Part shown: positions 2,213 to 14,568 of the stretch, piece by piece | Layout of the letters: every line of letters starts with the position of its first letter | Position numbering within the stretch: position 1 is the stretch's first letter | Assembly: GCF_905250085.1 (NCBI RefSeq) | Contig: NZ_CAJNOB010000056.1 | Span: 39,035 to 63,034, forward strand | DNA: 24,000 nt | Reading direction: 5' to 3' | Origin: Candidatus Methylacidithermus pantelleriae | GTDB taxonomy: Bacteria > Verrucomicrobiota > Verrucomicrobiia > Methylacidiphilales > Methylacidiphilaceae | Notes under the pieces: model-generated | Told to the model about the DNA's origin: nothing | The model's input: only the letters and a program-made list of their open reading frames with translations | Databases searched by the model: none | Position numbers and translations under genes: made by a program

Positions 2213-3394
2213 GTGCTTCTTAACGAGTGGGAAGGAAGAAGATTACTCGAGGCGGCAGGGATTTCTCTTCCGAGGGCAGCGATCGCGACTTCTGCCGAGG
2301 AAGCCGAAGAAATCGCTCTCCGGTTAGGAATTGACCGGCTGGTGATCAAGCCTGTCATTCGAGCTGGAGGAAGAGGAGTTGGAAGATGGATAGGGCAAGA
2401 GGAGGAAAGAGGAGGAATTGCCTTTGCTCACAACCCGAGAGAGGTCCGAAGCGTGGCCGAAAAAATGCTGGGTCGGAGGCTTGCCACTCCCCAAACACCC
2501 CCTGAGGGGGAACTAGTACGGCAAGTCCTCCTTGTGGAGAAGCTCGATCTGCAACGAGAGGTGTATTTTGCCGTGCTTGTAGACGGCCGAAAAGGGGCGC
2601 CCCTTATTGTGGCGAGTCCTCAGGGAGGAAGCTATGTGGAGGAGCAAAAGCAAAAGCGTTGGATCGAGTGGGTGCATCCGGAGCGAGGGTGGAAAGCCTT
2701 TTCCGCTCGCAGGGTTGCCAAGTATTTGGGGTGGGACGGGGAGAATCTCCCGGTTGCTACCGAGTTTCTGCTACGCCTCTACGAGACGTTTTGTAGGTAT
2801 GACTGCCTTCTTTTGGAAATGAATCCCCTCGGGGCCAACGCAGGGAAGGGGGAGCCGGTCATCGTCGACTGCCGGCTTTTCATTGATGATAATGCGTGGG
2901 AGGACCATCCCGAGTTGCGAAGATTGGCACAGGAGGAAGAGGAGGTCCTGGGCCCGTGGAAATGCTTGGAGCTAGGTCTAAGCTACGTGCGGTTGGGCGG
3001 GAACATCGGTTGTCTTGTCAACGGCGCAGGTTTGGCGATGGCAACCATCGATTTAATCCAGCGATGGGGAGGGAAACCGGCCAATTTTTGTGATGTCGGC
3101 GGAGGAGCTGATTTGGAACGCGTCAAAACGGGCCTGCGGCTTCTCTCTCGACAACCTGAGGTTTCGGTCATTTTAGTCAATATCTTTGGGGGTATTCTTC
3201 ATTGTGATCTTCTCGCACAAGCCCTGGTGGAAGTCGTCGAGGAATCTCCCCTAACTGTTCCCGTGATCGTCCGTTTGGAGGGGACCCGGGCAAGAGAAGC
3301 TTGGGAGGTTCTTCAAAAGTTTTCCGAGCTTTTTGAAGTAGCGGGGGATTTCGAGCAAGCCGTGCGAAAGGCCGTGACGCGGGCAAGGCGCTAG
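2213..3394 (+). CDS. sucC: Succinate--CoA ligase (ADP-forming) beta subunit
   Basis: C-terminal motifs GNIGCLVNGAGLAMATIDLI, GGKPANFCDVGGGA, VNIFGGILHCD and VIVRLEG closely match E. coli SucC. The GTG at 2213 gives (V)LLNEWEGRRLL, which aligns with MNLHEYQAKQLF, and GAGGAGG lies at 2194-2200. The track ORF starts at 2051 with a non-homologous 54-aa extension. Confidence 0.9.
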   Translation: MLLNEWEGRRLLEAAGISLPRAAIATSAEEAEEIALRLGIDRLVIKPVIRAGGRGVGRWIGQEEERGGIAFAHNPREVRSVAEKMLGRRLATPQTPPEGELVRQVLLVEKLDLQREVYFAVLVDGRKGAPLIVASPQGGSYVEEQKQKRWIEWVHPERGWKAFSARRVAKYLGWDGENLPVATEFLLRLYETFCRYDCLLLEMNPLGANAGKGEPVIVDCRLFIDDNAWEDHPELRRLAQEEEEVLGPWKCLELGLSYVRLGGNIGCLVNGAGLAMATIDLIQRWGGKPANFCDVGGGADLERVKTGLRLLSRQPEVSVILVNIFGGILHCDLLAQALVEVVEESPLTVPVIVRLEGTRAREAWEVLQKFSELFEVAGDFEQAVRKAVTRARR

Positions 3395-3434: not shown

Positions 3435-4313
3435 ATGGCGATCTTAGTAAATGCAGAAACAAGGGTTGTGGTCCAGGGGATTACGGGCCGAGCAGGGTCG
3501 TTCCATACGCGCGCATGCTTGGAATATGGGACCAAGATCGTGGCTGGCGTAACTCCGGGGAAAGGAGGCAGGAGGTTTGATGGGAAGATCCCTATTTTCG
3601 ATACGGTGGAGGAAGCAAAGGAAAGTACCGGATGCAATGCAAGTCTCATCTTTGTCCCTGCTCAAGCGGCTCCTGATGCCATTTTGGAAGCGGGAGCAGC
3701 TGGTTTGGATCTGGTGGTTTGTATTACAGAAGGAATTCGCGTGCATGACATGATGCGGGTGAGGTGGCAGTTGCAGCAAAGCCACACGCTTCTCTTAGGT
3801 CCCAATACCCCGGGGATTATTTCGCCTGGGCAATGCAAAATCGGGATTATGCCGGGCTATATCCACCGGCCCGGGCCGGTGGGAGTAGTCTCTCGAAGCG
3901 GCACCCTTACCTATGAGGCGGTGTGGCAGGCAACGCTGGAAGGACTGGGGCAGTCTACGTGCTTGGGTGTGGGTGGGGACCCGATCCATGGAATGAGTTT
4001 GGGAGAAGCTTTGTTCAAATTTATGGAAGACCCTCAAACGGAGGCCATTCTTCTTTTAGGGGAAATTGGAGGAGGGCAAGAGGAAGAGGTGGCTAAGCTT
4101 CTCTCTGAAGGGAGAATAACCAAACCTGTGGCAGCTTTTATCGCAGGGAGTGCGGCTCCCAGCGGCCGCCGGATGGGACATGCTGGAGCCATTGTTTTTG
4201 GCGAATCCGAGCGGGCCCGGACCAAAATGGAACGGCTCGAGGCTGCCGGCGCGTGGGTAATCGAAGATCCCTCGAAAATCGGGAAGACCCTTCGCAGACT
4301 CCTGCGAGGCTGA
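3435..4313 (+). CDS. sucD: Succinate--CoA ligase alpha subunit
   Basis: Motifs MAILVNAETRVVVQGITGRAGSFHT, VAGVTPGKGG, SRSGTLTYEAV, GVGGDP and the phosphohistidine loop MGHAGAIV. A G-rich SD lies upstream. It starts 40 nt after sucC. Confidence 0.95.
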   Translation: MAILVNAETRVVVQGITGRAGSFHTRACLEYGTKIVAGVTPGKGGRRFDGKIPIFDTVEEAKESTGCNASLIFVPAQAAPDAILEAGAAGLDLVVCITEGIRVHDMMRVRWQLQQSHTLLLGPNTPGIISPGQCKIGIMPGYIHRPGPVGVVSRSGTLTYEAVWQATLEGLGQSTCLGVGGDPIHGMSLGEALFKFMEDPQTEAILLLGEIGGGQEEEVAKLLSEGRITKPVAAFIAGSAAPSGRRMGHAGAIVFGESERARTKMERLEAAGAWVIEDPSKIGKTLRRLLRG

Positions 4314-4949
4314 CAGTGGCAAGAAGGTTTCGGTCTACGGTGTTACGGGAAGACGCAAAGCCGATGCGCGCTCAATTGAGGGAGAAAGAAGCCGGCCAAC
4401 GTTGTGTCATTGTCGATGTAGCCGGAAATTGTGGATGAACTTCCCAGCCGCAGTGTCCCAAAGCGGGACCGTTCGGGGCAGATTGGAGCTGGGCACTTGG
4501 GTGGGCGCGTTCCGCCAGGATCTCGGTCTATTCCCTTGTGATCTCCAGCAGGCCGGTCTCATTACCTGGCTGGAAAAAAACATTGCCTGCTTGGCCATCG
4601 AAAAAGCGTAGTCCTAGCTCGCTCAAGGTAACGCTCTTCCGTAGATCCTGTGCCGTTTTCCGAATCCGCCCGGCGTCCTGAAAGAGCTTCTTTCTGCACG
4701 AATCGCTTGTCCCTGCTTCTCCTCTCCTCGGTCACGAAAACCGCAGCCCTGATAGAGAGTTCGTCCACGGCGTTCTCGCCCTTCGGCCGATGCTCGAGCG
4801 AGATCGGCTGGATCGGAGCGATGAGTCTCAAACTATGCGCGAGGCAAGCCTTGGTTGCACTTCGGTCGCACATGTTCCAGCCTAGTCTTGGATCGTTGGG
4901 AACTGACCGGCTCACGCGGGAAAAGAATAGTGAGTGAATGAGCAGGCAT

Positions 4950-6850
4950 CCACCTCGGGGAAAAAATCCTGGCCGAAGCGCTACTTCTTTTGCCATAACG
5001 GCGGTTCCAGCGTCCTGATGGGACTCGCCCAGCGGTTAGTGTGGGCCGCGAAAAGGGTGAATCGTCCCGTGGGGAGGAAGGTATTTCCACCCGGCAACGA
5101 TTGGTCCAGGCGGAAACACCTGGAGGAGCTATCCGAGGTAACACGGGAGCTCGAAGGGCTCTCTCGAAAAGGCCTGGAAAGCGGGCGAATCGGCAAGCAG
5201 GCCCTACCGCAAGGGGGACGCTCTAACCAAACCTTGGAAACCGCGGGATAACGGCGCTGGGGCCTTCTCGCACAAAAAGCGAAAGCCGAAGTCTCTCTGG
5301 GAAGGACGAGCAAATACCGAGAACTAGGCAAGAGCATGCGTGCCAAGGAGGGTGCACGAGGAAAAAACGGGGGCCCATCCGGCCAATCGTTCGAGAGAAT
5401 GCCGAACGGGCTAGCCACTGCCCCGTGAGAAAAGAAAGTGGGACCAGATCGGAGTCGGATGGGTCCACGGTACTGTGGGACTCGGAGAAAGGCCCTAGGG
5501 ATGGGAAGGGGCAGGAGCAGGAGACTTCCAGAGGGAAACGTCGGAAGAATCGAGGCGACCGAGATGGGACGAATGGCTCCACGAGAATCTCCCAACAGTG
5601 TTCGGAAGTTCCCCATCGCGTTGCAGGCGAAAAGGAAGGCAAATTTCACCTATGGGCCGGGGCGATATGGCGGGTGTGCATCCCCAAAACCTGGCGGGAA
5701 CCGGAGGCGGCAAGGGAGACGCACCCTACGAGATGGGATGGTCCAGATGGCGACGGTTCTGGTACCTTCGCCCGATCTTTGAGGTGCATTCCCTATGCGC
5801 CTTGGATGAAGAGCCTAGCTTCGCCAGATACCTGTGGAGCCAGGCTTGCGCTTTTGAAAAGCCTGGCTGGAAATGTCCGTCGCGGTAGAGGACCGGCAGG
5901 GAAGGAAGCGGCGGGCGATTCAGGCCAAGGACGACCGGAGGCATGGGACACCGCAAGGAGCTCCCGTCTCTTGCTCTTTTGGCCAACCTCTCTATCTAAG
6001 CGGTTTATTCTGGCGTGGCAAAGAGAAGGGTGGATGGCCAAGTGGGCCGCCCACGTTGTACCGTAGGCCCTCGACGATGTGAGCCTTTGCCGGGGCTTCA
6101 TGCCGAGGAAGCCGCCAACCAAAATAAAGACCATCATGGAGCGAATCGGGCTTACTCTAAAGGGAGGAAACGACCCGGGTAGGCGCCCGAGTACCAGAGG
6201 AAAGCTTTTGAGTTTGTCGGTTACGCCTTGGGTCTTTGTTACAAGCCCACTACGGGTCAAAGCTAGCCGGGAAGAAAACCCTCAAAGCAACGGGTCAAGC
6301 GGCTATTGCAGAGTGTGAGCCAATGGCTCCGGGGGCTTTGCGGGGATAGGCAAACTCCTTCTGTCTTGGATGGTTTGAGCGCAAGCCTACCGGGCAGTGG
6401 ATCGTCACGTCGGGTACCGGCTCCGCTAGTGGCTCGGGCCTCAAGCCAGAAAGTCCAAGGGCAAGGAACGACTGAGTTTCCGGACGGTAATCCAGCGAGA
6501 AAAGGGTCCGAAGGCCCGAATGCGGGAAATCCACGCGTTCCGGTGCATGGAGCGGGCCCGCAAACGGTCGAGAGTGAGGGTAGGAGAGGCACTGCCACAC
6601 CGAAAGGGGGTAGCCCCAATATGCATTTCCTCGATCGCACCAGAGGATTCCTCAAGTCTAGGTAGAATTGCTGGAGCGCCCCAGCCACGAGCCGGCTCGG
6701 CGGGGTAGAGCTCGCTAGCTGCATAGGGGGGGCGCCACTGGCGGGGTAAGTTCAGCTTGCCGTCACCTACGCGGGGAGGCGGCTGGAAGGAAAAGGGCAA
6801 GTTCCGTGAGGCCTCCCTCATGCCTATTGCCCTTTTCCGGCTGGTGAAGC
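4950..6850 (+). ncRNA. Candidate large purine-rich non-coding transcript of unknown class; boundaries approximate
   Basis: My own base counts: 5461-5520 is G28 A14 C11 T7, and 5881-5940 is G28 A15 C14 T3. All three plus frames stay open at once over long stretches, which fits T depletion rather than coding. There are many short local hairpins, for example a 10-bp stem at 5838-5847/5859-5868. No Rfam family was recognised by eye. Confidence 0.3.
6789..6838. repeat. Hairpin with a perfect 12-bp stem (GGAAAAGGGCAA / TTGCCCTTTTCC) and a nested 5-bp TGAGG/CCTCA stem, located at the strand-composition switch
   Basis: Arms at 6789-6800 and 6827-6838 are exact reverse complements. The 26-nt loop contains TGAGG-CCTC-CCTCA. 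There is no U-tract on either side, so this is not a canonical intrinsic terminator. Confidence 0.5.
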
Positions 6851-7552
6851 GTGGCCAGAGCCGTGCACGGGAATCGATTCGTAGGAGGATGGAACTCAGC
6901 CCTGCTAAACAGTGCCAAGCGTCCGTGAGACTTCGCCTGGGTCAGTAGCCCATAAGTATATTCCCGGCTTGTGGTGCGTGGATATACCGCCGTGCCCTTC
7001 CGATCCCTTTGCTGCCATCAGGTGCTTTCCAAGGGAGAGTCTGCGTAATGTTTGCCGGTATCCTTGGCTGGGTCGGTGTGGAATATGGTCTTGCGCTTCC
7101 TTCGCTCCCCACTCCGATTCCATAGCTCTGCCAGCCTTGGGCTGGCTTATATTGATCTCACACCGTTCCGGAGCGGGACCGTTATCGATTTCACCTCATT
7201 TGGTGGGGGGTTGCCGGCTGGGTTCCTGCTTCTCGGGCAGGCTGTGTACCGCACGCCTTGCGCCTTTGTGCCGCAGAGCCCTTCTGCACAGCCGTCACCT
7301 GCCGAGGGGGCCTTCGGCTCGGGTGGCTCTTAGGACGACCAGCCCATCCGGCCGCTAGTTGAGTGACGTTACGGCCAATCGTTGGCAAAAAACCCGGATC
7401 GGTCCTGCAAAAACCAAGGCGTGTGAGAATGAGTTGCTATGGGCCGATCATTGAGAGCTTTGGTATTTTGTCGGGAAAGGAGGATGAAAAAGAGCATGGG
7501 AGAGGGCCTTCTTTCGTGTAACTCGCACGCTTCGCTAGGCAAGATTCGAGGA

Positions 7553-9589
7553 TTACTGAAGGTTCATCCCTTTGCGCTTGAGGTGACGCAAGATAGTTTC
7601 GACGAGCTCGTTTACTGTGGTCCGGGTCGTATCTAGGATAACGGCATCGTGAGCAGGTTTCAGCGGTGCAAGTTTGCGCTCCCGGTCCTTCTGGTCACGT
7701 TCTAAAAGCAGATCCGTTTCACCCTGTTGTCGGCGTCGTTCTTGACGAACCAAAGGATCTGCGTCGAGGAAGAATTTGTAGGGCGTTTTCGGAAAAACCA
7801 CCGTTCCAATGTCTCGCCCTTCCATGACCAAGGGGGCCTGGCGCGCAAGTTTTCGCTGGAGAGGCAAAAGGTACCGTCGAACGGCGGGGATGCTGGCTAC
7901 CAAAGATACGTTGGCATTGACTTCAGGATCGCGCAGGTAGGGCGAAGGGTCTTCGTCTCCTACGCGAATCTTAAGCTGGTGATTTTCAATCCAGCAATCC
8001 ATGGGGATTTTTCCAACGGCTCGCGCCACACGAAAACGATTGCTTATATCCACACCCATTTGGAGCAGTTTCCATGTCATGGCTCGGTAGAGAACCCCCG
8101 TACTGCAGTAGGCGAAATCAAGTCTCCGTGCTAGCTCTTGGGCGACTGTCGTTTTTCCCGATGCTGCTGTGCCGTCAATCGCCACTACGGGAAAACGCGC
8201 CTCAGCCGGGTCTTCTAGCGATTCTTTGGCCCATCGTGCCCACCGGTGACCGATTTGCCGAAAGGCTCGTTCTCCCCATCCAGGGATCTCCGATTGGGTC
8301 AAGCTCTCGAAGTCTTTCTCAAAGCCGGGATAGGAAGTAGCGATGCAGGCGGTATCCTCGATCACACTGACCCCATCGGCAGCCAGTGCCAAAATAGCAA
8401 AAGCCATTGCGATTCGATGGTCCCCGAAGCTCTGAACCGAGGCAGCGCGTAACGGATGACCTCCTTCGATAATAAGCCCGTCAGGGAGCTCCTCCACAGG
8501 CACCCCAAAGGCGCGCAGGTTATAGGCGAGGGCAGCCAAACGGTCGGACTCCTTGACGCGAAGCTCCGAAGCGTCGCGAATAATGGTTTCCCCTTGAGCC
8601 AGCGCACCGGCTACCGCTAGAATCGGCAGTTCATCGATCACCTGAGCAATCTCTTCGCCTCGGATCCGCGTTCCCCGGAGACGTTCTCCTCGGATTTCAA
8701 GGGTACCGTAGGGCTCGGTCTCACAGCTTTCAATCGTCTCTTTGACGGTGGCTCCCATGCGTAAAAGGATTTTCAGGAGACCCGTGCGAGAAGGATTCAG
8801 TCCCACCCCTTGCACAAAAAGCTCGCTTCCCGGGAAAGCTGCGGCCGCCACAATCCAGAAGGCGGCAGAGGAAAAATCCCCCGGGATAAAAAGGTCGTGG
8901 CCATGCAAGCGTACGCCTCCGTGAACTACAAGCTGACCATTGTCGAAAATGGGCCACAGGCCGAAATGACGAAGCAACCGCTCGGTGTGGTCTCGCGTGG
9001 GAATGGGCTCCTGGAGCCGGGTGACTCCGGAAGCAAAAAGCCCTGCCAGGAGAAGGCACGATTTGACCTGAGCGCTTGGCAGGGGTAACCGGTAATCAAT
9101 TCCATGAAGCTGAGATCCGTGAATCTCAAGCGGAGGAAGTTCTCCCGGTCCTTTGGCGTCGATCCGAGCCCCCATCTGGCGCAGCGGGACCAAAATTCGC
9201 GCCATGGGTCGCCGGGACAGGGAGGCGTCTCCGATAAGACAGGAAGAAAAAGGCTGGCCTGCAAGGATTCCGGCTATCAGCCGCATGAGCGTTCCGGAAT
9301 TTCCACAATCGATGGGCTCGGCAGGAGCCAGGAGTTTGCGATCTCGACCTTTGACCCGGACGGTCGTTGCATTAAGAAACTCGATTTCAGCACCCAGTGC
9401 CTGACAGGCGCGGATGGTTGCCAGGCAATCTTCCCCAGTTAAAACTCCGGAGAGGCGGCTTTCCCCTTCTGCGAGAGTCGCCAGAAGAAGAGCCCGGTGG
9501 GTGATACTTTTGTCTCCTGGGACGGTGACCGTGCCGCGGATTCGCCGGCTAGGAAAAATGCGGAGAGAACGGGAAGAGGTGTCTGGCAC
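7553..9589 (-). CDS. aroA: Bifunctional 3-phosphoshikimate 1-carboxyvinyltransferase (EPSP synthase) / cytidylate kinase fusion
   Basis: The N-terminal ~435 aa carry AroA motifs (VPGDKSITHRALLLATLAEG, DCGNSGTLMRL, RVKESDRL, DHRIAMAF). The last 213 aa (nt 7556-8194) are Cmk (FPVVAIDGTAASGKTTVAQELA, MEGRDIGTVVFP). It is one uninterrupted frame with a GTG start at 9589, and GGAGG lies 8 nt upstream. Confidence 0.9.
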   Translation of the reverse strand: MPDTSSRSLRIFPSRRIRGTVTVPGDKSITHRALLLATLAEGESRLSGVLTGEDCLATIRACQALGAEIEFLNATTVRVKGRDRKLLAPAEPIDCGNSGTLMRLIAGILAGQPFSSCLIGDASLSRRPMARILVPLRQMGARIDAKGPGELPPLEIHGSQLHGIDYRLPLPSAQVKSCLLLAGLFASGVTRLQEPIPTRDHTERLLRHFGLWPIFDNGQLVVHGGVRLHGHDLFIPGDFSSAAFWIVAAAAFPGSELFVQGVGLNPSRTGLLKILLRMGATVKETIESCETEPYGTLEIRGERLRGTRIRGEEIAQVIDELPILAVAGALAQGETIIRDASELRVKESDRLAALAYNLRAFGVPVEELPDGLIIEGGHPLRAASVQSFGDHRIAMAFAILALAADGVSVIEDTACIATSYPGFEKDFESLTQSEIPGWGERAFRQIGHRWARWAKESLEDPAEARFPVVAIDGTAASGKTTVAQELARRLDFAYCSTGVLYRAMTWKLLQMGVDISNRFRVARAVGKIPMDCWIENHQLKIRVGDEDPSPYLRDPEVNANVSLVASIPAVRRYLLPLQRKLARQAPLVMEGRDIGTVVFPKTPYKFFLDADPLVRQERRRQQGETDLLLERDQKDRERKLAPLKPAHDAVILDTTRTTVNELVETILRHLKRKGMNLQ

Positions 9590-10003
9590 TGGGTGATCCT
9601 CCTTTGCCTAATGGATAGATCTTAATCTCAAAGGAAGGAGTGAAGCAATGAGAGGCACAAAAAAACGGTTGTTGAGCAAGGGTGAATCCCAAAGTTCTGG
9701 GGGGCTGCTGATAGGGCGTCTGCCATTTGGACACGCTTCCGTTTGCGCCCTTCGAAGGGCAGGACAAAAGCTTTAAAGGTAAAAAAAAAGACCTTTCGCT
9801 TTCCATTTCTACCCCAAAAATCTTGCCCCACCGGTTTGCCCATTGCTCAGAGAGAAAGAAAGAGCCAAGACGTTTTTGCCGGTAAACCCAAGGGCAAGGT
9901 GGAGAGGATAGAGAGAATCGTGGAAGTTGTGCCGCCTACCGGAGAAAGGAACGTTTCCATCCCGTGTGCGATTTTGCCGCGAGGAGAGGTTCTGTCTGGG
10001 AAG

Positions 10004-10621
10004 ATGCGTCCCTTCTATGCCCTTACCTGGATCGTGACTCGCCGGATTTTGGAGGTCTTTTTTGATTTCTCTTCCCCTGGGATGGAAAAAGTGCCCCTGG
10101 AAGGGGGGCTCCTTGTTGTGGCCAATCACGCAAGTTATCTGGATCCCCCGATCGTAGGAGCGGCCCTCCCACGTGAGCTCTACTATCTGGCGCGGCGCAC
10201 ACTCTTTCGCCATCCCCTTTTTGCGCGCTTGATTCGAGCCTACCATGCGATTCCCGTGGAATTGGAACGACCCGATCCGGTAGGTTTGCGGGCGGTTCTG
10301 CGAGCCTTACGAAAAGGCAGGGCCGTCCTTCTTTTCCCGGAAGGAACTCGTACACCGGACGGACGTATGGGGGAAGCCCGGATGGGGGCGGGGTTTGTGG
10401 CGTGCCACGCGGGGGTCCCGATTCTCCCGGTGCGGATTTTTGGGACGTATGAAGTTCTCCCTCGGCACCGCAAATGGCCGAGGTTTTTTCCGATCCGCGT
10501 GGTGATTGGCTCACCGTTTCACATTCCCCAGGTCGAGGAAGAACCTCGTTCAAGAAAGCGCAAAGAGGTGTACCAGGAAGCGGCTTGGGAAATGAAGCGG
10601 AGAATCTTGGAGTTGGCCTAG
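10004..10621 (+). CDS. plsC: 1-acyl-sn-glycerol-3-phosphate acyltransferase
   Basis: Contains the H(X)4D motif NHASYLD and FPEGTRT. The ATG at 10004 follows GAGGAGAGG (9981-9989). The track ORF starts at a TTG at 9743 with an 87-aa basic extension that I consider non-coding. Confidence 0.85.
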   Translation: MRPFYALTWIVTRRILEVFFDFSSPGMEKVPLEGGLLVVANHASYLDPPIVGAALPRELYYLARRTLFRHPLFARLIRAYHAIPVELERPDPVGLRAVLRALRKGRAVLLFPEGTRTPDGRMGEARMGAGFVACHAGVPILPVRIFGTYEVLPRHRKWPRFFPIRVVIGSPFHIPQVEEEPRSRKRKEVYQEAAWEMKRRILELA

Positions 10622-11540: not shown

Positions 11541-12830
11541 TTACTGCCAGATGGGGAGGAGCATCTGATCGGCCACCGCAATGATCGTCCGGGTGCCCTC
11601 TTCATTGGTAAAGAAAAGGAGCCCTCCCAGGCGGTTGGTGGTCTCGGTGTACATAGTCAACCGCTCCGTTTCCCACACCGGGCTTTCCATCACCACGTGC
11701 AAGGTCTTGGTTTCACCCGGCTTGATTGGGTCGTTTGGCTCCACTACGAGATCTCCCCCATAGACCCCCGGAAACTCCGGTGAATTGTCGTTGGCAGGCT
11801 TTTTCTCGAAGGCGGGATTGAGGAAACGCACGTTGGCTGTGGTAAACTCCCGCAAAACCGCAGGACTATTCCCCTTATTGGTGACATCCATATCCATCGT
11901 GAGCTTCCTCCTGGGCACCTCGTACGTGGCCTTGGTGATCTTAACGTCCACCTCTGGCGGAGGTAGAGGGAGCGACGGGATCTTGAACCGCCCCGATTGC
12001 AGTGGGATCCGGATCGGGTACTGCTGGTTAGTCAGGGCCGCTGCTCCAAAACAAAGAACCGCAAGCCCAATGATAAACGCCCCAGCGAGTTGCCGGTCCC
12101 CCGGGGTGATAAGCTCTTCCGCACGTCCTTCCGCAATAAGCGCTTGACGAGGCATGATCGGCCGGGAGCACCAGATGGCTAGCCAGACAATCCCGATAAG
12201 AAACATGAGGGTCGTCCAGCCGAGCATCCGGGCCACGCCGTAGGTCTCCAGGTCAATCGTTTCCCCCGTAAGCGTCTTAACGAGGTTGGGAGGAGCTTCA
12301 TAGGGTCGTCCCCCTGGACCATCCACCTTGACGAAGCACCCAGGTCCCACCGTGGGACCTGCGACTTCAATGTTGAACATCGGGTGGATATGGTAAGCCC
12401 AGTCTGCTCCACGCCGAGCTCGCAAGACCTGTTTATACTCGTAGAGCGCGCCAATCTCGCACACGAAAGCGTTAAACACGCTCTCACCGTTAACCCAAGT
12501 CCCGGTTCGGATAAAGGTAGGACCTGGGGCAGCGACATTGAGATTGGCAATTCCCCCGAAGGTGATCTCCCGGGGCCAGATCGGCAGGATCTGAAGCTTG
12601 CCCGTAATGACAAGCTCATCACCAATCTTCAGTGGGGCCCCCGTTCCTTCCTTTGCCCACCGATCCGACCAGAACTTGGTGTCGTAGAAGACCATCGTTC
12701 TCATTCGGAGAAACGCTTCCTGGGAGCGTTCCCCGTGAGCCCAAGCACGGGGGGAGCTGGCGCCAAGGCCTAGCCCCAACGCCAGAACTCCCCACAACGC
12801 AAAGGCTCTGGCTCGATTCGACTGTTTCAT
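11541..12830 (-). CDS. pmoB: Particulate methane/ammonia monooxygenase subunit B
   Basis: Signal peptide followed by AWA|HGERSQEAFLRMRT (compare HGEKSQAAFMRMRT in Methylococcus capsulatus PmoB). Also contains DWAYHIHPMFN, the HxH motif. It is the third gene of a C-A-B operon. Length is 429 aa. Confidence 0.93.
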   Translation of the reverse strand: MKQSNRARAFALWGVLALGLGLGASSPRAWAHGERSQEAFLRMRTMVFYDTKFWSDRWAKEGTGAPLKIGDELVITGKLQILPIWPREITFGGIANLNVAAPGPTFIRTGTWVNGESVFNAFVCEIGALYEYKQVLRARRGADWAYHIHPMFNIEVAGPTVGPGCFVKVDGPGGRPYEAPPNLVKTLTGETIDLETYGVARMLGWTTLMFLIGIVWLAIWCSRPIMPRQALIAEGRAEELITPGDRQLAGAFIIGLAVLCFGAAALTNQQYPIRIPLQSGRFKIPSLPLPPPEVDVKITKATYEVPRRKLTMDMDVTNKGNSPAVLREFTTANVRFLNPAFEKKPANDNSPEFPGVYGGDLVVEPNDPIKPGETKTLHVVMESPVWETERLTMYTETTNRLGGLLFFTNEEGTRTIIAVADQMLLPIWQ

Positions 12831-12911
12831 CGCTGGCTTTTCCTTTCCTGGTTGATACTCGATTTGGCTTTCCTCTGGCTGCTACTAAAAGCTCCTGCAG
12901 AGCCTTAGCGC

Positions 12912-13643
12912 CTACATCGATCGCGTAAAGATCGGGCGAGTCAACCAGTAGCCGAAGAGCCACCAGATGAAGTACATAAGGACGCAAACGAACCCCGCAA
13001 AGAAGATGGACACAAACAAGGTACCACCCGCGAAGGCCCGCAGCGTACCCCGTTCCACCAGGCGGATGTACTCCGGCATAGAGGTTCGGATATACTCAAA
13101 GCCGATCAAATCCGCCACGGAGAGCATCTGTCCGTGCAACTCGATGGGAACATGGTAGGGACCTACCATGAACCAGTTCGAGGGAACGAACAGATAGGAG
13201 AAGGATTCCCCTCCGGCCAAGGCTGTGATCACCCAGCTATTGGTGAGTAAAAGGATGCAGTCGAGCACAATAGCGCTCGGGATGGACGTTTCCGGAAATA
13301 CCAGACTCAATGGATACCAAGTCCAGTCATAGTGGTTCCAGAATCGATCCATCCACTGGCCGAAGTGGAGAGCGACGACGGAAAGGGTGGCCCCGATCGG
13401 CAGTCGATAATTCGGCCAGAGACACGCCTGGACCGCCGCACAGAAGGTGATCGTCATGGTGGTGTTAACGATCGGCCACCAGCGCCGGTCCTTCCAGTCT
13501 ACCCAGAAGGACCAGTCCCCAGCCACCAGCATGTGATGGACGTGGAACCCGCCGGCTAAGACGAAGAAGGCGGCCGAAACGACGATCCAGTCGAACTTTC
13601 TGCTAATCGCACGGGCTTCCGCCTCAGTTGCTACCGTTGCCAT
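12912..13643 (-). CDS. pmoA: Particulate methane/ammonia monooxygenase subunit A
   Basis: GDWSFWVDWKDRRWW, YRLPIGAT and MPEYIRLVERGTLR match my recollection of M. capsulatus PmoA (GDWDFWSDWKDRRLW, YRLPWGAT, TPEYIRMVEKGTLR). AGGAGGAAG lies upstream of the ATG. Confidence 0.95.
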   Translation of the reverse strand: MATVATEAEARAISRKFDWIVVSAAFFVLAGGFHVHHMLVAGDWSFWVDWKDRRWWPIVNTTMTITFCAAVQACLWPNYRLPIGATLSVVALHFGQWMDRFWNHYDWTWYPLSLVFPETSIPSAIVLDCILLLTNSWVITALAGGESFSYLFVPSNWFMVGPYHVPIELHGQMLSVADLIGFEYIRTSMPEYIRLVERGTLRAFAGGTLFVSIFFAGFVCVLMYFIWWLFGYWLTRPIFTRSM

Positions 13644-13680
13644 AGTTACTTCCTCCTAGTTGTTTCTGCCGCTTACACGG

Positions 13681-13708
13681 GAGAGGGGAGCTTGGAAGCT
13701 CCCCTCTC
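13681..13708 (-). promoter_or_regulatory. Perfect 12-bp-stem, 4-nt-loop hairpin in the pmoC-pmoA intergenic spacer
   Basis: GAGAGGGGAGCT-TGGA-AGCTCCCCTCTC, read directly. No U-tract follows on the transcribed strand, so it is more likely an mRNA processing or stability element than a terminator. Confidence 0.5.
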
Positions 13709-13737
13709 GCAAACTCAAGCGGTGACAGGCTCCTGGA

Positions 13738-14568
13738 TTAGCTGAGCACCGCAGCCGCCTTCGTGTCCGCGTAGGGGTCTTCCATCAAAGCCGCCGCGGG
13801 CTTGCAGGGCTTGCCGAAGTAGATGTGGCCGAGGAGTTCAGCAACCCTCGGGTACGAGGCAGTGACCCAGCCAAGGAACGCGATGGCGGCCCATCCGAAG
13901 AAGACGAACCCCCAGTGTAGCGGAGCCACGAAGAGCTCTTCCATGATCCAGGCTGTGTGACCGAACTCGTTCAGACCCACATTGGGGAGAATCATGAGCG
14001 GTCCAGCCACAACGATCAGCCACGGAACACAGAAGCGGTTCACGAACTGCGGGAGCCGTGTACGCCCGTACACGAACCACGTCACGCCGAAGATGATATA
14101 CACCGGGTAGGTGAGATAAAACTCAATAATGTGGCTTGGCGTAAAGTCCGTGTCCCGGATGATGGTCATGTGCCAGTCTCCATCCTGCTCGGTGAAGTAG
14201 CTGGCACCCCAGTAGATTCCAAACGCGTACACCAGAGCCCACAGGTAGAGGTTAAAGTACCGCTTGAGCTCCAGGTCGGGTGCAAGCCGCTCCATGTGAC
14301 GATCGCGGGTGGCCCACAGCCATCCCCATGCGCCCGCCAATGTAGTGGCTTCGAGCACCCACTCAGCGTACAGCCAGTTAAGCCAGTAGCTGACATATAC
14401 CGGAGAGGTGTAGTCAGTCCCCTTCTGCAGGGCGTAGGTCCTCTCGTACCAGTTCACAAGAATGTAGAACACGGTCAGAGAGGCCATCGCCATCCATGCA
14501 GGAGCGAAGCTAAAGGCCTTCCTCTCCGGCACAGCTACTGCTACGGTTGTCGCAGTTGGTTGTGCCAT
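13738..14568 (-). CDS. pmoC: Particulate methane/ammonia monooxygenase subunit C
   Basis: WGASYFTEQDGDWHMTIIRDTDFTPSHIIEFYL, ILPNVGLNEFGHT and MEELFVAPLH are near-identical to the M. capsulatus PmoC metal-site region. AGGAGG lies 8 nt upstream of the ATG. Confidence 0.95.
   Translation of the reverse strand: MAQPTATTVAVAVPERKAFSFAPAWMAMASLTVFYILVNWYERTYALQKGTDYTSPVYVSYWLNWLYAEWVLEATTLAGAWGWLWATRDRHMERLAPDLELKRYFNLYLWALVYAFGIYWGASYFTEQDGDWHMTIIRDTDFTPSHIIEFYLTYPVYIIFGVTWFVYGRTRLPQFVNRFCVPWLIVVAGPLMILPNVGLNEFGHTAWIMEELFVAPLHWGFVFFGWAAIAFLGWVTASYPRVAELLGHIYFGKPCKPAAALMEDPYADTKAAAVLS

Follow-up and report, generated by a model that had tools for sequence, protein, structure and literature searches.

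A probable fossil group II intron in the gene-free interval between sucD and aroA-cmk of Candidatus Methylacidithermus pantelleriae

Introduction

Group II introns of the endonuclease-less family covered by the Rfam models group-II-D1D4-4 (RF02003) and Intron_gpII (RF00029) begin with 5' GUGYG, followed by ribozyme domains 1-3, a domain 4 that contains the open reading frame (ORF) of a reverse transcriptase (RT)/maturase (Pfam RVT_1 and GIIM), domains 5 and 6, and a 3' end in ...AC. Intact members measure ~1980 nt and comprise a 5' ribozyme part of ~500 nt, a 439-aa RT/maturase without endonuclease domain and domains 5 and 6; they occur in Methylacidimicrobium tartarophylax, Verrucomicrobium sp. 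3C and many soil metagenome contigs (L085-L087, L093-L172). Group II intron RTs and ribonucleoproteins (RNPs) of solved structure include the Eubacterium rectale IIC intron RNP (7uim), the GsI-IIC RT (6ar1), T.el4h (6me0) and LtrA (5g2x), which are matched by the RT/maturase of M. tartarophylax (P0001) with E values of 9e-51 to 2e-26. Incomplete intron copies are common in bacterial genomes, and so are decayed group II introns. This article describes what appears to be such a decayed copy on the + strand of a 24 kb stretch of the genome of Candidatus Methylacidithermus pantelleriae (24,000 nt, hereafter the window), where it occupies about half of a gene-free gap between the converging genes sucD and aroA-cmk.

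The succession of parts that characterizes the family, from 5' GUGYG through domains 1-3, the domain 4 ORF and domains 5 and 6 to the 3' end, is also traceable by homology in the window copy, whose DNA is 67–78% identical to that of the M. tartarophylax copy and which shares with it 59% of the residues across the bridged ORF. The window copy differs from the family in that its ORF is broken, YADD is lost and domain 5 is degraded; it is detected neither by the two Rfam models nor by Pfam because it is too decayed. The RTs of solved structure are active enzymes, whereas the window copy is untranslatable. It also differs from truncated or ORF-less derivatives of the family (L083 and L124 2577-3300, described below) as it has its full extent and both ends and is internally eroded rather than cleanly truncated. 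Judged from its sequence, the element is a group II intron by descent that has neither the undamaged domain 5 nor the uninterrupted ORF of a functional one, and this fossil is a new, previously unannotated instance of a known element type. The gap as a whole is very probably non-functional DNA with this dead intron as its core (~5039-6640).

The reverse transcriptase/maturase pseudogene

The RT/maturase pseudogene lies at 5573-6553 on the + strand. It has kept the ATG at 5573, but the frame is changed ~15 times, interrupted by 4 stops and shortened by three deletions, so that the intron-encoded RT and maturase (X) domains in domain 4 are present by homology, as a pseudogene and not as an open reading frame. 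Pieces of RT motifs (PKPGG, VQMATVLV, LRPIFE, GTPQG, *ALDD, FEFVGY and DRHVGYRLR*WL) are scattered over the three + frames. A 311-aa query peptide stitched across these frames by eye found its best match in P0001 (E 6e-47, 41% identity, 86% coverage), and RVT_1 and GIIM were present on all 37 matches of the peptide. An intact sibling RT from Candidatus M. pantelleriae was not among these homologues. A preliminary description of the window had stated that no ORF of the gap resembles a known protein family; this holds for the raw ORFs, for which Pfam was empty in six frames, and no longer applies once the frameshifts are bridged.

The same remnant was recovered without stitching. When the intact proteins P0001, P0002, P0003, P0006 and P0009 were compared with the whole window by tblastn, significant high-scoring segment pairs were confined to 5585-6504, and those of P0001 fell in all three + frames (E 1e-19, 9e-16 and 7e-13). 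A hidden Markov model (HMM) of 33 family members placed domains at 5675-6489 on the + strand and nowhere else in the window; run on all frames, it revealed no second RT remnant. A fragment of the remnant had four matches in the PDB, all of them group II intron RTs, with the GsI-IIC RT as the top one.

At the DNA level, the intron contig of M. tartarophylax (L084) aligned with the window by blastn in four colinear blocks: L084 26-330 with window 5327-5653 (67%, E 3e-35), 505-646 with 5648-5790 (74%), 793-1503 with 5806-6485 (69%) and 1570-1614 with 6488-6532 (78%). Between the blocks the ORF has lost 174, about 130 and 66 nt, a total of ~370 nt. A frameshift-aware protein-to-DNA alignment gave 193 identical residues over 328 aligned codons; 63 residues are missing, the frame changes 16 times and 4 stops fall in frame. 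The catalytic YADD reads P*ALDD in the window copy. The N-terminal lesion is a deletion of ~60 codons after residue 26 that joins aa 26 to ~aa 86; at the kept ATG (5573) the window reads MAPRESPNSVRKFPIALQAKRKAN, to be compared with the family sequence MSL.TP..V.KLQ.ALHAKAKGS. The N-terminal part of the frameshift-aware alignment (aa 49-69 to 5542-5600) was rejected as spurious, since it contradicts both the DNA alignment and the kept ATG.

Ribozyme remnants and intron ends

The fossil intron extends over 5039-6640 (+ strand), that is, ~1602 nt. This length is consistent with that of the intact members, as 1980 nt less the 370 nt deleted leaves 1610 nt. The intron 5' end (GUGUGGGCCGCGAAAAGG) and a remnant of domains 1-3 are found at 5039-5316. 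The RNA segment that precedes the ORF, covering the 3' portion of domains 1-3 and the beginning of domain 4, lies at 5327-5572, where it is aligned with L084 by blastn. For comparison, three identical copies of the intron from one metagenome (L085-L087) and 80 further loci from JGI metagenomes were used. The intron of L085-L087 runs from GTGCG (2549) to ...CTCGACTCTAC (4528) and measures 1980 nt. Matches to Rfam D1-D4 models were present in all 20 metagenome relatives tested (D1D4-4 in 19, D1D4-6 in L093), beginning ~470–490 nt upstream of the ORF, and Intron_gpII matched directly after the ORF in 9 of the 20; L085-L087 also carry the expected Rfam group II matches.

The 5' end of the window copy, GUGUG, agrees with the GUGYG consensus, with its first base ambiguous between 5039 and 5041. 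The window sequence GUGUGGGCCGCGAAAAGG at 5039 corresponds to the family 5' ends GTGCGCCGTGAAAAGGCGC and GUGCGCCGUGAAAAGG, and in a longer comparison the family sequence GUGCGCCGUGAAAAGGCGC is paralleled by GUGUGGGCCGCGAAAAGGGUG at 5039. An nhmmer profile of 20 intact 5' segments matched 5042-5316 (E 3.8e-8, from profile position 2), which was its sole match in the 24 kb window, and L085 2550-2645 was aligned by blastn to window 5041-5142. The Rfam model group-II-D1D4-4 gave no match in the window at E<=10, as compared with 65–117 bits in 19 of the 20 intact relatives. Domains 1-3 would therefore be traceable by sequence descent without a demonstrably preserved structure.

Domain 5 is degenerate and lies at 6512-6546. 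A covariance model (R1) was built for this domain from 46 family sequences, in which pairing of the helix reaches 99.5% and covariation is seen at 5 pairs. The model matched window 6502-6572 with 15.3 bits (E ~0.004), the top match within 4000-8000, whereas held-out intact introns scored 64–96 bits. In the window the catalytic triad AGC is changed to GGC (6513-6515), 3 of the 13 pairs are broken, including both basal ones, and each strand has one inserted base; the domain 5-like hairpin retains the GAAA loop. A hairpin of ~34 nt with an AGC triad and a 2-nt bulge, which defines a domain 5, was not found in the window, and Rfam applied to 6470-6720 alone (251 nt) did not report Intron_gpII even at E<=10. 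A probable remnant of domain 6 and the intron 3' end follow at 6547-6640. The 3' terminus CUCGAUCGCAC (6630-6640) is homologous to the family terminus CUCGACUCUAC, as compared with 9 intact introns, and L085 4378-4478 is 71% identical to window 6506-6609 by blastn.

The gap and its flanking genes

The gap measures 3239 nt (window 4314-7552), as compared with 33–308 nt for the other spacers between long ORFs of the window. On the left it is bounded by sucD (succinyl-CoA ligase alpha subunit; 3435-4313, + strand), which is intact (Pfam CoA_binding, Succ_CoA_lig and Ligase_CoA), and on the right by the aroA-cmk fusion gene (7553-9589, - strand), likewise intact (EPSP_synthase and Cytidylate_kin) and 100% identical to the deposited protein of Candidatus M. 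pantelleriae. The ORFs of the gap do not exceed 222 aa and overlap one another on both strands. With a codon-position-specific (3-periodic) Markov model trained on 14 genes of the window, the mean best-frame coding score was +8.5 to +8.7 for the flanking genes as opposed to -2.9 for the gap, and scores above +4 were reached in just 2 of 104 gap windows. These values bear out the preliminary description of 4314-7552 as a stretch with no credible gene in tightly packed surroundings. The sequence of the gap is identical in two independent public assemblies (L001 and L002), and for this reason it is not an assembly or sequencing artefact.

Both assemblies carry gene calls in the gap (window 4435-7358; 58, 144, 211, 153, 119 and 148 aa). 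No Pfam family matches any of these calls; each coincides at least in part with the fossil or with an orphan ORF, and they are almost certainly spurious. The metagenome-assembled genome, which originates from Pantelleria island, contains 3,127 coding sequences for 2.47 Mb (PMC8170126), a high density that suggests over-calling.

The gene order around the gap is not that of related genomes. In three relatives from the Methylacidiphilales (L088, L090 and L092) plsC (acyltransferase, PF01553) is found directly after aroA-cmk on the same strand, its start overlapping the aroA-cmk stop; rpsA comes next, and no sucD lies in the vicinity. In the window, plsC (9743-10621, + strand) lies upstream of aroA-cmk in divergent orientation and sucCD lies downstream. 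The gap therefore appears to sit at an inversion or rearrangement breakpoint. A scan of genome contigs with sucD returned relatives of <=60% identity, none of which had the same gene order.

The pmoCAB operon (particulate methane monooxygenase; AmoC, AMO and Monooxygenase_B) is encoded at window 11541-14568 on the - strand, 4 kb from the gap. Its proximity confirms the methanotroph context assumed in the preliminary description.

The outer stretches and searches for other elements

Two non-coding stretches flank the intron remnant: 725 nt on the left (4314-5038), with an orphan ORF at 4562-4996 (- strand, 144 aa) as the largest, and 912 nt on the right (6641-7552), where a hairpin (6789-6838) precedes an orphan ORF (6912-7358, + strand, 148 aa). 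Six-frame searches of both stretches against Pfam, NCBIfam and PHROGs gave no family match, and six-frame tblastn against plasmids as well as blastn and tblastx against all 170 fetched loci produced only noise. The genes that neighbour the gap in relatives, compared with the gap by tblastn, recovered the end of aroA itself and nothing else. The family RT HMM, self-similarity, folding z-scores (mean ~0) and coding periodicity were also without signal in the outer stretches. With the ORF at 4562-4996 as query, HMMER run in full against 1.84 billion representative proteins retrieved only the ORF itself, and the same was true of the ORF at 6912-7358 against 5.8 billion proteins.

Screens of the gap as a whole were similarly empty. 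The preliminary description had proposed a search of the interval with Rfam, and this search yielded no relevant match: there was none in the whole window at the gathering score, noise-level models of eukaryotic long non-coding RNAs alone in the gap at E<=10 (E 0.05–9), and none to the covariance models of known large bacterial non-coding RNAs (ncRNAs) in Rfam 15, including rRNA, OLE, GOLLD, HEARO, ROOL and tmRNA. Pfam had no match in all six raw frames of the gap or in two short stitched pieces. A scan of the gap for tRNA and tmRNA found none, promoter-like sites were absent, and terminator-like sites were fewer than in shuffled sequence. Folding z-scores on both strands had a mean of ~0 with no excess stability; the lone strong window (5700-5849) falls inside the RT remnant. 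The gap contains no tandem repeats and no terminal inverted repeats beyond chance, and its direct and inverted repeats are short and at chance level; the inverted ones are 71–88% complementary and some lie within the flanking genes. Self-blastn detected no internal duplication and blastn of the gap against plasmids no match. No transposase family was found in any frame of the gap (Pfam, NCBIfam and PHROGs), searches by which decayed remnants are poorly detected.

The hairpin of the right outer stretch is imperfect (23 bp with a 4-nt loop, GGAAAAGGGCAAGTTCCGTGAGG / CCTCATGCCTATTGCCCTTTTCC, 78% complementary) and has no T-run after it. In addition, two exact 12-mers, GCCCATCCGGCC and CGGCCAATCGTT, which overlap in the intron remnant (5373-5391), reappear in unchanged order in the right outer stretch, where a 23-nt insert separates them (window regions 5373-5404 and 7342-7396). 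Sensitive self-blastn did not extend this repeat, and the recurrence could be due to chance or to a tiny duplicated fragment.

Origin of the gap and alternative explanations

A plausible history of the locus is that a mobile intron, oriented like sucCD, inserted by retrohoming or retrotransposition in the non-coding DNA that separates the converging genes sucD and aroA-cmk; the remnant begins 725 nt beyond the sucD stop codon. Having interrupted no gene, the intron would not have been under selection for splicing or mobility, splicing could have been lost at no cost, and neutral erosion would have proceeded since. To judge from the damage it has suffered, it would now be unable to splice or move and would have no function. 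The outer 725 and 912 nt would most likely consist of older, unrecognisable debris together with the 3' untranslated ends of both genes, and the position of the gap at a rearrangement breakpoint supports the reading of these stretches as debris.

Several points weigh against this account. Half of the gap (4314-5038 and 6641-7552) is without positive identification, so that debris is a default reading and not a demonstration. The initial peptide was stitched by eye; tblastn, blastn and the family HMM confirm the remnant independently. When a raw frame from the RT remnant was put through the generic searches as a control, it had no Pfam match and only one marginal plasmid match (E 2e-3), so that sensitivity for equally decayed remnants is low. 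Finally, the collections contain no close relative of this genome, the nearest aroA-cmk being 57% identical and set in another gene order.

The control result bears directly on the alternative that the outer stretches derive from an ordinary gene or a further mobile element, such as an insertion sequence or the original homing target of the intron, and have decayed past the reach of the searches: given that the RT frame is nearly invisible, an equally decayed second element could hide there. The break in gene order at this site and the fact that bacterial group II introns often reside in or beside other mobile DNA also speak for it. However, Pfam, NCBIfam, PHROGs, plasmid tblastn, the neighbour genes of relatives and the two large protein searches were all empty, residual coding periodicity is absent and terminal inverted repeats do not exceed chance, so this alternative is regarded as possible but rather unlikely. 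It is improbable that the 1.6 kb of the outer stretches constitute a lineage-specific functional element absent from databases, such as a novel ncRNA or the remains of a mobile element into which the intron homed. There is, similarly, little chance that one or several novel large ncRNAs missing from Rfam are encoded in these stretches or across the entire gap, with the fossil as a passenger or co-opted. Such RNAs would fit the ~1.6 kb left unexplained where two genes converge with their 3' ends, the imperfect hairpin at 6789-6838 and the absence of any protein signal in the searches of the outer stretches; against them stand the empty Rfam results at the gathering score or E<=10, folding z-scores near 0 with the strong window only inside the RT remnant, the lack of promoter-like sites, the scarcity of terminator-like ones and the absence of similar sequence in the fetched loci.

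Other explanations concern the intron itself. By analogy with ORF-less group II introns, it might be a working ribozyme spliced with the help of an RT/maturase from another copy, as both of its ends (5' GUGYG and the 3' end) are recognizable, together with much of domains 1-3 and a domain 5-like hairpin that has a GAAA loop. This is very unlikely in view of a domain 5 that scores 15 bits instead of 64–96, has AGC replaced by GGC and lacks 3 of 13 pairs including both basal ones, of a D1D4-4 model that matches 19 of 20 relatives and not the window at E<=10, and of an intact sibling RT of the organism missing among the homologues. The source is a metagenome-assembled genome (PMC8170126), a circumstance under which the frameshifts might be attributed to assembly or sequencing errors and the gap might really hold an intact intron or genes. 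That is very unlikely, however: the gap has the same sequence in two independent assemblies built from different runs, none of the flanking genes is damaged, and the damage to the intron includes deletions of 66–174 nt and base substitutions in domain 5, which go beyond homopolymer slips.

Among the options offered in the preliminary description (large ncRNA genes, a decayed gene cluster or an element type missed by ORF-based annotation), decay and escape from annotation were right in spirit for 5039-6640. A functional large ncRNA gene finds no support, with Rfam empty, folding z-scores of ~0 and the catalytic domain 5 degraded. Frameshifted remnants traced by a series of homology matches, which that description had named as evidence against its view of the gap, were found for 5039-6640, leaving ~1.6 kb of outer sequence unexplained.

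As a group II intron pseudogene, the fossil would account for half of the longest stretch left unannotated in this region of the genome, and would indicate that the lineage was once invaded by an intron family that is still intact in Methylacidimicrobium. Its significance is mainly for annotation and no new biological question is opened. The hypothetical proteins called in the gap, for example at 4562-4996, 4981-5616, 6263-6724 and 6912-7358 are, in all likelihood, not genes. A note of caution is that a retroelement invisible to Rfam and Pfam became obvious with bridged frameshifts and family-specific models.

Intact and derived family members in other genomes

The three copies L085-L087 are found in three gene contexts of one metagenome and have in common ~18 nt of upstream exon (TTATCCTGTCCATCCATG, about 2520-2548), which suggests a conserved homing site. 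Other members of the family show a loose TAAC/TAGC motif 8–12 nt upstream of the insertion point.

Contig L083 (ENA ERZ15185739; positions 1-1700) encodes an intact 439-aa RT/maturase, and its similarity to the intron family spans only from ~150 nt before the ORF to ~25 nt after it. Domains 1-3 and domains 5/6 are absent from L083, in which neither Rfam nor R1 finds anything; it is therefore considered a ribozyme-less, orphan group II RT gene. A tRNA gene is located ~1.3 kb downstream of this RT.

Contig L124 has a full-length intron (ORF 920-2233, domain 5 at ~2253) and, directly downstream, a second D1D4-4 match (2604-2744). A second domain 5/6 occurs at 3153-3300, ~550 nt after the start of the second D1D4-4 match, so that L124 2577-3300 looks like an ORF-less mini-intron of the same family arranged in tandem with the full copy.

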